Shown here: positions 4,241 through 62,335 of the stretch, piece by piece
Layout: each line of letters opens with the position of its first letter
How positions within the stretch are numbered: the first letter of the stretch is position 1
Source: Mobula birostris
Lineage: Eukaryota
Assembly (NCBI RefSeq): GCF_030028105.1
Contig: NC_092383.1
Location: forward strand, 37,470,961 to 37,534,960
Direction of reading: 5' to 3'
Length of the DNA stretch: 64,000 nt
The notes under the pieces: generated by a model
Databases searched by the model: none
What the model was told of the DNA's origin: nothing
What the model saw: the letters and a program-made list of their open reading frames with translations, nothing else
Program-made: the position numbers and the translations under genes

Positions 4241-4601
4241 TTTTGCTTTTTGTGTTTATTATTATTATTATTATTATTATCACCTGGTACTCACTTATTG
4301 TAAATCTGTGAGCTTTGTCCCTTTTCTGCCTCTTTTTAAACTCAACTGTTTCTCTCCCAATCAGATGAAACCTGTTCGCGTGCTTTTTTTAAAACTCAAT
4401 AAGTAGGCAGTCTTCTCAGGTTCATTTTAAAACTTCCTCATCACCACTGTTATGTTTAGTAACTCCAGAACTGAATTGAAAGCGAAACACAGGAGGCGGG
4501 GATATTGAGGTAGGGATACTTAGCTTCTTCTCTTTAGTGAGACACACACTTATGATGTAGTGGTGTAATGACGCATACCACCTACTTCTTACTGATAACC
4601 C

Positions 4602-4794
4602 GGGGTGTATGGGGTGCCAGGGAGGGGTAGCACCACTGGAGGGCAACATGTCGCGTCCTTTTCAAGGCGGTTTGTCCAACTTTGGTCCCCACCTGGCACT
4701 CAGCTCTCACCTGTGGCTCCCCATAGCTGTTTGCATGTGACAGCGGCCACACCCCGGGCAACGGCTTCAACAAGCCGGCTAAACCAGGTGAGGG
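4602..4794 (+). ncRNA. HDV-like self-cleaving ribozyme with a large J1/2 domain and an L3 hairpin insertion
   Basis: P1 GGGGTGT(4602-08)/ACACCCC(4749-55); P2 CTCTCACCTGT(4704-14)/ACCAGGTGAGGG(4783-94, one bulge); P3 GGC(4715-17)/GCC(4746-48); L3 starts TCCCC; P1.1 GG 4756-57; J1.1/4 GCAA; P4 CGGCTT/AAGCCG; J4/2 GCTAA with catalytic-position C4779. Confidence 0.8.
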
Positions 4795-5171
4795 TAGCCG
4801 ACAGGTCTCAAACCCTTGGCGAGATAGGGAGTTGTCTATCCCAGCATGTGAAGACAGACTCCAACTGATTGAGCAGACGAGACCAATGAAAGGTCCAACG
4901 TCAAGAAGGCGATCTCTGCAAGCGTCATGGAACACGTAGAGCAGGACTAGACACAGGAGACGTCCTGGTCATCCACTGCGCCTAGTCCCATCACCAACCG
5001 TGTCAACTCTTATCTTGCCACTGGATCCAGATGGGAATTGGGAAGAGAGAGTGAGGATGATGCTGCGTAACTCTCCCTCACTTAAATCCAAATCACGTGC
5101 TAGTCTCGACACCATCATCATTTGACTAATGGTGTTGAGGTCTTCATCAATGGTGATGGATGAACACACAC
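4602..5171 (+). mobile_element. Non-autonomous RTE-derived short retroelement (copy 1)
   Basis: 11-bp TSD ACTGATAACCC at 4591-4601 and 5172-5182; (CA)n tail; no recognisable protein; second copy at 58976-59538. Confidence 0.85.
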
Positions 5172-5437
5172 ACTGATAACCCATAACGAATTACATAAAC
5201 AAAGAATGCTTAATCAAACTATATATTTAAATAATACTGAAATATTCTCCACCTTCAGATCTGACAGCCACTGAAGCGTGGCATTATGTCCAGGAACTCT
5301 GGGTTTAAATAGTGGCAACTTCTGCCTAACTTGTGAGAATTGGACACACATTTTTACTGAACCTGGAATACACATTACCAAATTGCTTTATTTTTCTCAT
5401 CTAATATTATGCTCTACTGAACTCAGTAAAGTTAATG

Positions 5438-6843: not shown

Positions 6844-9192
6844 TTCTTTTTAAATCTTTTTATTGAATAAGTATACAAAAAAGTAAGCCATATAGGCACT
6901 AATACACTGTTAGAATATAATAAAATTACAGGAGATATTAATACAAAAAAAAATACAAACAATGTAATTTAAACATAACATACCAAGGTAACATAACAGT
7001 ATACTAATTTTTATATATATATCAATAGAGAAAAGGAAAAAAAAAACCCCAAAAAAAACCCACCGTGCAACTAACTAAAAGCAAAGCAAAGCAATGGGCT
7101 AACTTGAAACCAAACAGAGTTAAAAAACTTAAAATCACGTCCTCAATCCCGACCTCCATTAAAAACAGTAAAAAAAACAAGAAGGGTATATATTACATTA
7201 AATGAAAATATTGAATAAAAGATCTTCAGGTCTGTTCAAATTTAAATGAAGAGTCATAAAGATTGCTTCTAATTTTCTCCAAATTCAAGCATAATATCAT
7301 CTGAGAAAACCAAAAAAAGGTAGTTGGAGGATTAAGCTCTTTCCAATGTTGTAAAATACATCTTTTCGCCATTAAAGTAAGAAATGCAATCATTCTACGG
7401 GCTGAAGGAGAAAGATTACTGGAAATTTTAGGTAATCCAAAGATAGCAGTAATGGGATGAGGAGAGATATCTATATTCAATACCTTGGAAATAATATTAA
7501 AACTGTCTCTCCAAAAAGTTTCCAGAGTAGGACAAGACCAAAACATATGAGTTAAAGAAGCTATCTGCCCCAGACATCTATCACAAAAAGGATTAATATG
7601 AGAATAAAAGCGAGCTAATTTATCTTTGGACATATGTGCTCTATGAACAACTTTAAATTGAATTAGGGAATGTTTAGCACAGATAGAGGAAGTATTGACT
7701 AATTGTAAAATCTGCCCCCAGTCATCCACGGAAATAATAGATCCCAATTCTTGTTCCCAATCTGACCTAATCTTATCAAATGGAGCTTTCCTAAGTTTCA
7801 TAATAATATTATAAATAATAGCCGATGCACCTTTCTGACATGGATTAAGGGTATCTAAAATGTATGTAGGAGGAAGCATTGGAAAGGAAGGAAGTATGGT
7901 ACTTAGGAAATTTCTAACTTGTAGATATCTAAAAAAATGTATTCTTGATAAATTATATTTATTAGATAATTGTTCAAAAGACATAAGGGAACCATCTAAA
8001 AATAAATCCAAAAACCGTGAAATACCCTTAGTCTTCCAAATTTGAAAAGCGCGATCCGTAAAAGAGGGAGGAAAAAATATGTTACCTAAAATAGGAATCG
8101 CTAACCCAAATTGGTTAAGATCAAAAAATTTTCTGAATTGAAACCAAATACGTAAGGTATATTTAACTATTGGGTTAGACACCTGTTTAAGGCGTTTCAA
8201 ATCAAAAGGAAGAGAGGAACCTAAAATAGAGCCAAGTTTATAGCCCTGAACAGATTGTAATTCCAATGCTACCCATTTAGGAATGGATAGTATATCCTGG
8301 TCAAGTAACCAAAATTTCATATGTCGAATATTAATTGCCCAATAATAAAATCTAAAGTTAGGTAATGCTAAGCCTCCATCTCTCTTAGCTTTCTGTAAAT
8401 GTATTTTACCCAGTCTCGGGTTTTTATTTTGCCAAATAAATGAAGAAATTTTGGAGTCAACTTTATCAAAAAAAGATTTTGGAAGAAAAATTGGTAATGC
8501 CTGAAATATATATAAAAATTTTGGCAAAAAAAACATCTTAACTGCATTAATACGACCAATCAAAGTTAAATATAAAGGAAACCATTTAGATGAAAGTTGA
8601 ATAATATGATCAATTAAGGGTAAACAGTTAATCTTAAATAAATCTTTGTATTTACTAGTCATTTTAATCCCAAGATATGAAAAATAATTATTAATCAATT
8701 TAAAAGGAAAGTTATGATATAAGGGAAGTTGTTTATTGATCGGGAAAAGTTCACTCTTACTAAGATTTAATTTATAACCTGAAAAAAGACCAAATTGTGC
8801 TAATAACTCTAAAACAGCAGGGATGGATTTTTGGGAATTAGAAATATATAAAAGTAAGTCATCAGCATAGAGTGATATTTTATGGGACTTTAAGCCCCGA
8901 GTTATCCCAGTAATATTTGGAGATTCTCGAATGACAATTGCAAGAGGTTCTAAGGCAATATCAAATAATAAAGGACTAAGAGGACACCCTTATTGAGTAC
9001 CTCGAAAAAGAGGGAAAAAAGGTGAGCTTAAAGAGTTAGTACGGACCGAGGCCACAGGAGAATAATATAACAATTTAATCCAGGATATAAATTTCGAGCT
9101 AAAATTAAACATTTCAAGCACCTTAAATAAATAAGGCCATTCTACTCTATCAAAAGCTTTCTCAGCATCTAAAGAGGTAACACACTCAGGAA
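6844..9192 (-). mobile_element. 5'-truncated L1/Tx1-clade LINE
   Basis: 17-bp TSD CAAATGGTCTGYATCCT (6827-6843, 9193-9209); AATAAA plus A-rich tail on the minus strand; RT motifs [32 protein letters not shown]. Confidence 0.93.
7226..9190 (-). pseudogene. L1/Tx1 ORF2 remnant (RT plus C-terminal CCHC region); 490-aa open segment at 7226-8698
   Basis: YLG, GGLALP and CDRC...HMFWSC motifs; in-frame stop in the RGTRQG motif; no endonuclease (5' truncated). Confidence 0.9.
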
Positions 9193-22300: not shown

Positions 22301-22974
22301 GAGAAGTTAGCACGTCTTCTTGCACCACTTCAGTCTGCACTACAACCTTGGCATCATTTTGTGCTGGTCGCTGTGTTTTTATTGCCCTGTGAACCGCTTA
22401 CTATGTGAGCATCGTACTAGCAAGGCGCTTCATCACACCCTGGTGTATATGACATTAAACTAATCCGAGTGCGTGGATCTGGGCATCACAAATGAAGCAG
22501 AAGAACAAACAATAGAATTGGGTCCAGTTGTGGATGGCCAGGCAGTACAGAACACAGGAGAGACTCTGAACAGCAGCGTACAGAGAACAGTGCCAGAGGC
22601 AGTCTGAGATTGGCAGACTCTGTACCTCCAGGGTGACTTCAGTTCTCTTGTACTTTACGGCTTAAGAAAGAAAAGGGTTGTAACTGAACGAGCATCCTCC
22701 TCTGGTAATCCTTGATGGACAGATCCTGTCACTGCTGCTGAGATGTGCCTTCTCGCGGTGGAAGTACCCTCCAGACATTGACAGCAGTGTACGGAAAGTC
22801 AGTGCTGACACAGTCCGAGGGACAGCAGTAATGGAGTCAAGGAGCCAAGTATAAGGAATGTTGTAAGTCACTCTCACGACGCCTGACAGGGCAGAATGAC
22901 AATCTACGGAAACAGAGACTACTCATTTCCAGAAAATACATGTAAATATATTCATGATCAGCGTACCTTGTGGA

Positions 22975-23707
22975 AGAAGGAGCTGGCGGTAGACCTGAGG
23001 AGAGCTAAGGTACTGGCGACCCCTGTTTCCATCCAGGGGGTCAGTGTGGACATGGTGGAGGATTACAAATACCTGGGGATACGAATTGACAATAAACTGG
23101 ACTGGTCAAAGAACACTGAGGCTGTCTACAAGAAGGGTCAGAGCCATCTCTATTTCCTGAGGAGACTGAGGTTCTTTAACATCTGTTGGACGATGCTGAG
23201 GATGTTCTACGAGTCTGTGGTGGCCAGTGCGATCATGTTTGCTGTTGTGTGCTGGGGCAGCAGGCTGAGGGTAGCAGACACCAACGGAATCAACAAACTC
23301 ATTCGTAAGGCCAGTGATGTTGTGGGGATGGAACTGGACTCTCTGACGGTGGTGTCTGAAAAGAGGATGCTGTCTAAGTTGCATGCCATCTTGGACAATG
23401 TCTCCCATCCACTACATAATGTACTGGGTGGGCACGGGAGTACATTCAGCCAGAGACTCATTCCACCAAGATGCAACACAGAGTGTGATAGGAGGTCATT
23501 CCTGCCTGTGGCCATCAAACTTTACAATTCCTCCCTTGGAGGGTCAGACACCCTGAGCCAATAGGCTGGTCCTGGACTTATTTCCTGGCATAATTTACAT
23601 ATTACTATTTAATTATTTATGATTTTATTACTATTTAATTATTTATGGTGCAACTGTAACGAAAACCAATTTCCCCCGTGATCAATAAAGTATGACTATG
23701 ACTATGA
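22975..23707 (+). mobile_element. Rex1/Babar LINE 3' end with an open RT C-terminal frame (ORF 22896-23564)
   Basis: KELAVDLRR, YKYLGIRID, LYFLRRLR, FYESVVASA; AATAAAG plus (TATGAC)n tail. Confidence 0.9.
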
Positions 23708-58904: not shown

Positions 58905-59703
58905 CACAGGAGCCTGAAGACCAGCGCTCAATGTTTTAGTAACAGCTTTTTCTTCTCTGCCAACAATTACCTGTATTGTTGCTCGTCCATTGTCGTCATC
59001 AGTGAAGACTTCAGCACCATTATGATGATGTTGAGACTAGCGTGTGATTTGGATTTAAGTGAGGGAGAGTTGCGTAGCATTGCCTCACTCTCTCTTCCCA
59101 ATTCCCATCTGGATCCAGTGGCAAGACAGAGTCGAGACGGCTGGAGATGGGACTAGGTGCAGTGGATGACCAAACATCTTCTGTGTCTTGTCCTGCTCTA
59201 CACGTTCCACGACGCTTGCAGACACAGCCTTCTTGACTGTTGGACCTTCCATTGGTTTCAATCCGCTCAATCCGCCAGAGTCTTTCTTGATATGCTGGGA
59301 TAGACAACACCCTATCTCACTGAGGTTTTGAGACCTGTCGGCTACCCTCACCTGGTTTAGCCGGCTTGTCGAGGCTTTTGCCCAGGGTGTGGTCGCTGTC
59401 ACATGCAAACAGCTATGAGGAGTCACAGGTGACAGCTGAGTGCCAGCTGGGAACCAAAGGTGGACTAACCGCCTTGAAAAGGACGTGACATGTTCCCCCA
59501 CCAGAGGTGCTACCCCTCCCTGACACCCCATACTCCCCAGATACCTGTACAGCCCATGGGCACTACTGCACCACTCCACCTTTGTGTTATTTATTTATTT
59601 ATTTTATTGCAACTTCTGATAATTTTTAATATCTTACACAGTACTTCTGCCACAAAACAACCAATTTCCCAGCATTTGTCAGTGATAATAAAGTTGACTC
59701 TGA
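58905..59703 (+). mobile_element. Rex/Babar tail split by RTE-SINE copy 2
   Basis: CAGGAGCCTGAAGACC..CTCTGCC upstream; CCCATG..GATAATAAAGTTGACTCTGA downstream. Confidence 0.65.
58976..59538 (-). mobile_element. Non-autonomous RTE-derived short element (copy 2) with a decayed HDV-like ribozyme at 59345-59538
   Basis: Full-length reverse-complement homology to 4602-5171; TSD core TACCTGTA (58968-75, 59542-49); short CAACAA tail. Confidence 0.85.
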
Positions 59704-61364: not shown

Positions 61365-62335
61365 GTGGAGTGCCTCAGGGATCTGTTCTGGGATCCCCTA
61401 CTCTCCATGATTTTTATAAATGATCTGGATGAGGAAGTGGAGGGATGGGTTAGTAAATTTGCTGATGACAAAGGTTGGGGGTGTTGTGGATAGTGTGGAA
61501 GGTTGTCAGAGGTTACAGCAGGACATTGATAGGATACAAAACTGGGCTGAGAAGTTGCAGATGGAGGTCAATCCAGATAAGTGTGAGGTGGTTCATTTTA
61601 GTAGGTCAAACATAATGGCAGAATATAATATTAATGGTAAAACTCTTGGCAGTGTGGAGGATCAGAGGGATCTTAGGGTCCGAGTCCATAGGACATTCAA
61701 AGCTGCTGCGCAGATTGACTCTGTGGTTAAGAAGGCATACAGTGCATTGGCCTTCATCAATCGTGGGATTGAGTTTAGGAGCCGAGAGGTAATGTTGCAG
61801 CTATATAGGTCCCTGGTCAGACCCCACTTGGAGTACTGTGCTCAGTTCTGGTCGCCTCACTGCAGGAAGGATGTGGAAACCATAGAAAGGGTGCAGAGGA
61901 GACTTACAAGGATGTTGCCTGGATTGGGGAGCATGCCTTATGAGAATAGGTTGAGTGAACTTGGCCTTTTCTCCTTGGAGAGATGGAGGATGAGAAGTGG
62001 TCGGATAGAGGTGTATAAGATGATGAGAGGCATTGATCGTGTGGATAGTCAGAGGCTTTTTCCCAGGGCTGAAACGGCTAGCATAAGAGGGCACAGGTTT
62101 AAGGTCTTGGAAGTAGGTACAGAGGAGATGTCAGGGTAAGTTTTTTATGCAGAGACTGGTGAGTGCGTGGAATGGGCTGCCCGTGACGATGGTGGAGGCG
62201 GATACAATAGGGTATTTTAAGGTACATGGAGCTTAGGAAAATAGATTGCTATGGGTAACTCTAGGTAATCTCTAAGGGAAGGATATGTTCGGCACAGCTT
62301 TGTTGGCCAAAGGGTCTGTAGGTTTTCTATGTCTC
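61365..62335 (+). mobile_element. CR1 RT C-terminus and 3' UTR (ORF 61420-62139)
   Basis: GVPQGSVLG, FINDLD, LVRPHLEYCAQFWSPH, ERVQRRLTRM. Confidence 0.92.

Follow-up and report, generated by a model that had tools for sequence, protein, structure and literature searches.

Ribozyme-headed, internally deleted retroelements are a known kind, represented by the R2 SIDEs, NARTc, and the bipartite RTEs. The R2 SIDEs join a 5′ HDV-like ribozyme to a LINE 3′ end, contain neither an ORF nor a pol III promoter, and are moved in trans, and ribozymes of the R2 and R2/R1 SIDEs cleaved in vitro (Eickbush and Eickbush 2012, PMC3414825). Within the L1Tc/ingi clade, NARTc, RIME, and SIDER are short derivatives with HDV-like ribozyme heads, several of which were shown to be active (PMC4035085). 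Bipartite RTEs such as Bov-A, RTE-N2_Lch, RTESINE2, and WALLSI3 combine an RTE 5′ part with the 3′ end, and retention of the true 5′ end was tied to a ribozyme (Kojima 2018, PMC5786205). In the accessible text of that paper, no ribozyme fold is given for these elements, no pairing between their two parts is mentioned, and the cause of the bipartite bias of RTEs is stated as unknown. In R2 and RTE elements, HDV-like ribozymes share a nested double pseudoknot, a long J1/2, a catalytic C, an L3 U and G, and predicted cleavage at the element's 5′ terminus (PMC3774820, PMC6765202).

The window, the 64,000-nt stretch of DNA analysed here, contains an element of 570 bases (4602-5171) that resembles each of these systems. 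It has the architecture of the R2/RTE ribozymes at its head (with A4723 in place of the L3 G in this copy), an RTE 3′ end, and no coding capacity, and the 5′UTR and tail of WALLSI/RTE-3_AMi (PMC5786205) are visibly homologous to its family. Unlike the R2 SIDEs, which are described as invertebrate, rDNA-specific, and low in copy number (PMC3414825), the window family descends from an RTE, is scattered through a 4-Gb genome in thousands of copies, and has its junction inside a helix between the two UTRs. It also differs from NARTc, RIME, and SIDER, which are trypanosomatid, of the Ingi clade, and built on a compact hallmark of ~77 nt (PMC4035085), and from the R2/RTE ribozymes in its L3, which is 28 nt with a hairpin rather than ~7 nt (PMC3774820, PMC6765202). 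We consider it highly probable that the element arose from an RTE by internal deletion, that its HDV-like head likely cut its RNA out of host read-through transcripts at the first base (G1), and that the enzyme of the parent likely copied it in trans by recognizing a two-part structure, an arm from the 5′UTR paired with one from the 3′UTR. The parts of the element, and a second copy in the window, are as follows.

4591-4601 (+): 5′ target-site duplication (TSD), 11 bp, same letters as 5172-5182
4602-4794 (+): HDV-like ribozyme head that came from the parent RTE, with cleavage predicted 5′ of G4602
4602-4608 (+): 5′ strand of P1, partner 4749-4755
4609-4703 (+): J1/2 domain, closing helix 4612-4621/4692-4701, pair probabilities 0.77-1.0
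4704-4713 (+): 5′ strand of P2, partner 4785-4794; pair 8 takes four forms across families
4715-4748 (+): P3 (4715-4717/4746-4748) enclosing the 28-nt L3
4718-4745 (+): L3, with U4718, C4719, C4720, and A4723, then a 21-nt insert
4726-4730/4740-4744 (+): 5-bp hairpin within the 21-nt L3 insert
4756-4784 (+): GG of P1.1, J1.1/4, P4 (4762-4767/4772-4777), predicted catalytic C4779, and J4/2
4795-5121 (+): remainder of the parent RTE 5′UTR; the deletion starts at its closing (CAT)n run
5105-5115 (+): 5′UTR arm of the long-range helix, located in the 5′UTR of the parent
5123-5171 (+): 3′ end of the parent RTE, with the stop codon at 5127-5129, then tail structures
5129-5139 (+): 3′UTR arm of the long-range helix; the terminal stem-loop follows from 5140, then an (AC)n tail
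5172-5182 (+): 3′ target-site duplication, matching 4591-4601
58976-59538 (-): second, more decayed family copy in the window, 87% identical, with P3 and P1 broken

A sequence-only reading of this stretch had proposed an apparently intact HDV-like ribozyme at the exact 5′ end of a SINE-like element, and most of its structural statements hold. All strands of P1, P1.1 (C4719 and C4720 with G4757 and G4756), P2, P3, and P4 lie where it drew them, in nested double-pseudoknot order, as do C4779 and the helix closing J1/2. The 11-bp TSD ends at 4601, and G4602 is therefore the first base that follows it, as had been claimed. A double-pseudoknot descriptor matched the element once, with G1 at 4602 and the C at 4779, and matched none of 1000 dinucleotide shuffles of the element and nothing else on either strand of the window. 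Rfam returned no ribozyme family for the element at E values up to 5. The element also proved as devoid of protein and pol III signals as had been stated, with no ATG-started ORF above 50 aa and no match to an A/B-box regular expression. Its head is a LINE 5′UTR and not the tRNA, 5S, or 7SL head with A and B boxes that defines a pol III SINE. Elsewhere in the window, ORFs at 7226-8989 (-), 22887-23564 (+), and 61420-62139 (+) resemble fragments of other LINE reverse transcriptases.

Covariation within the window family (family A) is uninformative because few copies retain an intact core (5/23, 9/30, and 4/18 in three samples), as would be the case for decayed insertions. Across related families, P1, P2, and P4 covary. 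Direct homologues of the head were found in family B, in a young sister RTE, in RTE family C, and in the metagenome RTE L268, and the same architecture was found in L307. Family B (L111-L140, L231-L260) is an older, non-coding, ribozyme-headed family that is 76% identical to the window family, with copies ~80% identical to one another. Family C (L398-L406) is a third RTE with a homologous ribozyme and its own deleted derivatives of ~470 nt. The first pair of P1 is G-C or A-U (A-U in the sister RTE), the sixth is G-C or A-U (A-U in family C and L268), and pair 8 of P2 occurs as C-G, U-A, G-C, and A-U, that is, as all four Watson-Crick pairs in four families. P4 changes on both sides between families, P3 and P1.1 barely vary among the direct homologues, and an indel preserves the J1/2 closing helix in family B. 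In a 10-row alignment 93.6% of the cells pair, a value reached by none of 500 shuffles (a count that is not a probability) and set against 38-50% in slid controls, with P2 of L268 one column out of register. The catalytic C in J4/2 is present in 22/23 and 18/18 copies and in all seven representatives, and L3 opens with U-C-C-x-x-G, x varying, in every family. Judged by the placement of its helices and by the shuffle control of the descriptor, the HDV-like fold is real in the window element. A strict descriptor run over the 5′ regions of 80 metagenome RTEs gave four matches in sense and none in antisense. Canonical HDV-like ribozymes were seen upstream of the metagenome RTE ORFs of L282, L290, L292, L293, and L307.

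The unusual part of the fold is L3. In four homologous groups (the sister RTE, family C, L268, and L307) L3 measures 7 nt, whereas families A and B and the parent carry a 21-nt addition with a 5-bp hairpin, giving 28 nt, a length passed over in the sequence-only reading. This departs from the usual 7-8 nt of HDV-like ribozymes, as a variant and not as grounds for exclusion. The bases of the catalytic core are conserved between the long-L3 families A and B in spite of ~24% divergence. Our literature search turned up no description of an active HDV-like ribozyme whose L3 is 28 nt long, nor any of such an insert. The predicted long-L3 ribozyme with an inserted hairpin appears to be new.

The word "intact" suits the family but not the copy in the window. 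Position 4723 is the conserved L3 G, which partners the L3 U in a reverse wobble, and it is G in 21/23, 29/30, and 15/18 of the other copies but A here. The same G-to-A change abolished cleavage in a Nasonia R2 ribozyme, though not fully in HDV (Eickbush 2013). In addition, a CCC in the TSD is able to extend P1 over the P1.1 guanines. The window copy is a decayed member whose ribozyme is probably impaired, poor or dead. An alternative helix, 4608-4619/4714-4725, was set aside, having a predicted probability of at most 0.07.

A core pattern taken from the element gave 2,262 matches in the 4.0-Gb genome and none when reversed, and 99 of the 100 matches listed belong to its family. Family copies are ~560 nt long and bear the marks of retrotransposition, namely TSDs, an (AAC)n-type tail, and 5′ truncations; in selected samples they deviate by ~5% from the column majority over the first 200 nt. 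Their 5′ ends pile up at G1, a point that the sequence-only reading had put up for testing: 21/29 copies found with a 3′-body query and 23/30 taken in positional order start within 4 nt of it, as do 28/29 found with a 5′ query, a biased set. Copies that start elsewhere are mostly 5′-truncated, and among the full-length copies of these samples (21, 23, and 28) no pair has an upstream flank in common. In 50 of 72 full-length copies G1 is preceded by T, frequently outside the TSD, which may reflect a preference for certain targets or else the addition of a base without template. L097, L196, and L233 have their 5′ part in the opposite orientation to the body, an arrangement like that of twin priming.

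The source of the family was found through its tail. A pattern built on the tail as it stands in the window copy gave 110 matches, and 27 of the 30 loci inspected were the 3′ ends of RTE ORFs that encode a zinc finger at the C terminus. Extension of 20 tail loci recovered two full-length RTEs of ~4.05 kb (L216 and L219), each with its own 11-bp TSDs; the search for an RTE sharing both ends with the element thus succeeded. The window element matches them over nt 13-520 (89%) or 2-520 (86%), and the last ~50 nt of both are its tail. When parent-family loci were collected through the endonuclease instead, 27/30 carried this 5′UTR and 18/30 began within 2 nt of G1. None of these 30 loci has a whole ORF, the longest open frame being 557 aa. 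The parent protein has endonuclease (EN) and reverse transcriptase (RT) regions, with an EN domain detected in L219 and EN plus RT in the sister RTE, to whose ORF it aligns over residues 9-955 at ~60-70%, which fits the single EN+RT ORF of RTE type. We place the parent in the RTE clade by the likeness of its UTR and tail to published RTEs. Both ends of the element are colinear with the same RTE and the ORF is deleted, as in SIDEs and bipartite elements; by this alignment, therefore, the window element is a bipartite, internally deleted derivative of a 4-kb RTE, made of the first ~520 and the last ~50 nt of its parent, and its ribozyme head is inherited from that parent.

Several other candidates for the parent were rejected. 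RTEs bearing DUF6451 did not share the tail at their own 3′ ends (0/20 loci); one such locus contained a piece of a different RTE, through which we came to the sister family. The young sister RTE is only 75-77% identical and has a different tail. The idea that the 5′ part of the element reaches the start of the ORF failed, with no pattern matches and ~200 nt of further UTR in the parent. No parent of family B was seen among 30 tail loci. As a separate observation, many near-identical fragments of DUF6451-bearing RTEs are clustered at 14.8-17.3 Mb of C38 in G000, which suggests segmental duplication.

These results correct the earlier proposal of a ribozyme-headed SINE family mobilised by an RTE. 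The family is multi-copy, non-coding, and RTE-linked with its 5′ end at the predicted cleavage site, and to this extent the core inference is supported by the genomic evidence; the ribozyme was, by the same alignments, inherited from the parent of a SIDE/bipartite-type element and not gained by a SINE. An independent SINE that acquired both its ribozyme head and the tail of an RTE is scarcely credible: heads are exchanged among these families (L401 has a family-C head on a family-B body), but along all 520 nt of its 5′ part the element is colinear with the very RTE from which the tail comes, and the full-length parent, colinear at both ends, refutes such a capture.

The junction forms bear on whether the short copies multiplied as a family or were each made afresh from parent RNA. 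One form accounts for 27 of 58 classified copies, a concentration that speaks against repeated origin, yet several other forms are present, L196 retains a longer piece of the tail, and L217 represents a further internal deletion. There are far more short copies than parent copies, and none of the latter occurs among 30 position-ordered core matches. Seven of 88 family copies (L020, L023, L040, L041, L055, L084, and L096) share the same ~135-nt piece inside the junction loop, tRNA-like by eye and with related free copies in L015 and L039; by sequence these are a composite subfamily, and its shared insert at seven loci also argues for amplification. We consider it quite unlikely that the copies arose one by one from the parent and never amplified, and favor an amplified family of deleted RTEs.

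The sister RTE (L161-L180, L371-L384, L391-L397) is young, with 95-97% identity among its copies and open frames up to 1189 aa. In most of its copies GC-rich heads, which fall into two or more types, stand in place of the ribozyme; by eye, some resemble pieces of host mRNA, one of them zinc-finger-like. Among the seven sister copies with a ribozyme head that we found, P1 is missing its first 3 nt in five, which lie at five loci on four contigs and have 220-360 nt of upstream flank in common; in the two that retain a whole P1 the flanks are unrelated. Read-through transcription followed by self-cleavage predicts this, an intact head giving a clean end and a broken head retaining the flank. Because one event may underlie all five copies, they count as a single natural experiment, and we take them as indirect evidence of the cleavage predicted at G1. 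A promoter inside the element that starts transcription at G1 and a vestigial long-L3 ribozyme would be the alternative. LINE 5′ ends can drive transcription (Kojima 2018, PMC5786205), and the 28-nt L3 is without a precedent that we could find, but the retention of the core bases in families A and B and the flank carried by the broken-P1 copies, which points to upstream transcription, make such a promoter unlikely. Release by the ribozyme from a longer transcript remains our preferred reading.

The deletion junction lies inside a hairpin (5105-5115/5129-5139) of 11 bp, with one arm from the parent 5′UTR and the other from just past the stop codon; in the parent the two arms are 3.5 kb apart. 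The sister RTE pairs at the same positions, where five changes are compensatory and one of the 11 pairs is mismatched. Most young sister copies carry an A-C mismatch in the helix. We evaluated this pairing in 14 RTEs: the parent, the sister, and 12 of 80 metagenome RTE loci, 27 of which had a locatable 3′ end (2 truncated, 2 duplicate, and 11 belonging to another subgroup were left out). The 5′ window covered the 60 nt that precede a conserved UTR motif and the 3′ window the 18 nt that precede the terminal hairpin; both were chosen after we had noticed the pairing. Cognate duplexes averaged -14.0 kcal/mol and non-cognate ones -9.2 kcal/mol, and none of 200,000 permutations was as good (one in 200,000 when two close relatives were dropped). 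Moving the 5′ window up or down abolished the difference, a wide fixed 3′ window left a weak signal (3353/200,000 permutations), and a naive search for duplexes over the whole UTRs had its top site at the homologous position in 3/9 elements only. The helix is weak in L268, L287, L265, L281, and L309, for which 7-26 of ~50 ORF windows equal it.

Inspection by eye of published sequences in the PMC5786205 supplement showed a 9-bp pairing at the same place in RTE-3_AMi and RTE-1_PSi with a compensatory change between them, a 10-bp pairing in BovB with a compensatory change in BOVA2, an 8-bp pairing in RTE1_LA, and junction hairpins of 9-11 bp in WALLSI1/2 and MonoRep87B; SINE2-2_ACar and the coelacanth SINEs have 4-5 bp only. 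In the same supplement, Vingi-2_Gav and SINE2-1_AMi have 5′ ends that by eye seem to resemble the mammalian CPEB3 ribozyme closely, and the loop bases match. Our literature search returned no paper linking that ribozyme with Vingi elements.

A short helix likely joins the distant ends of RTE RNAs, as judged from the pattern of base changes. Our search of the literature other than subscription papers, Repbase reports, and patents found no published description of such UTR-UTR pairing, and this end-to-end helix appears to be new. The helix may serve translation, stability, or folding and not recognition by the RT, deletions ending there only since it brings the ends together; covariation indicates pairing and not purpose, and most young sister-RTE copies spread with the A-C mismatch. 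The helix is, however, retained in the non-coding family A and, by eye, in WALLSI1/2, BOVA2, and MonoRep87 (supplement of PMC5786205), and it adjoins the terminal stem-loop. We regard a role other than recognition as doubtful.

The mechanism that we propose for the window family would begin with host read-through transcription yielding an RNA that contains the element, from which the predicted HDV-like ribozyme would cleave itself at G1. Next to the terminal stem-loop, the 5′ arm would then fold back to pair with the 3′ arm, the EN/RT protein of the parent would bind the folded RNA in trans, and target-primed reverse transcription would insert the copy. In the parent RNA the helix would loop out the ORF and favor a template jump across its base, at the (CAT)n run, by which the ORF would be deleted. 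RTE parasites would be bipartite because the UTR-UTR helix likely joins both ends, which would force them to retain both UTR pieces. Extended to the clade, the proposal is that RTE RNAs, including that of BovB, loop via a conserved 9-12-bp helix between a 5′UTR site and the bases before the 3′ terminal stem-loop, that the RTE protein recognizes the composite, with the result that parasites are bipartite and joined inside the helix, and that this family has an active L3-hairpin variant of the HDV-like ribozyme missed by standard models; taken together, we judge this wider claim to be evenly poised between right and wrong.

The window family places a ribozyme-headed deleted element, at high copy number, in a large vertebrate-type genome. 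If active, its long-L3 ribozyme would widen the HDV fold, and searches limited to a short L3 would under-count these ribozymes. The broken-P1 copies provide a natural test of the use of a ribozyme to a retrotransposon. The helix matters more than the deleted element itself, which is of an expected kind. It also bears on RTE-based gene insertion, in which, according to PMC13708176, templates carry both cognate UTRs and UTR optimization raised efficiency.
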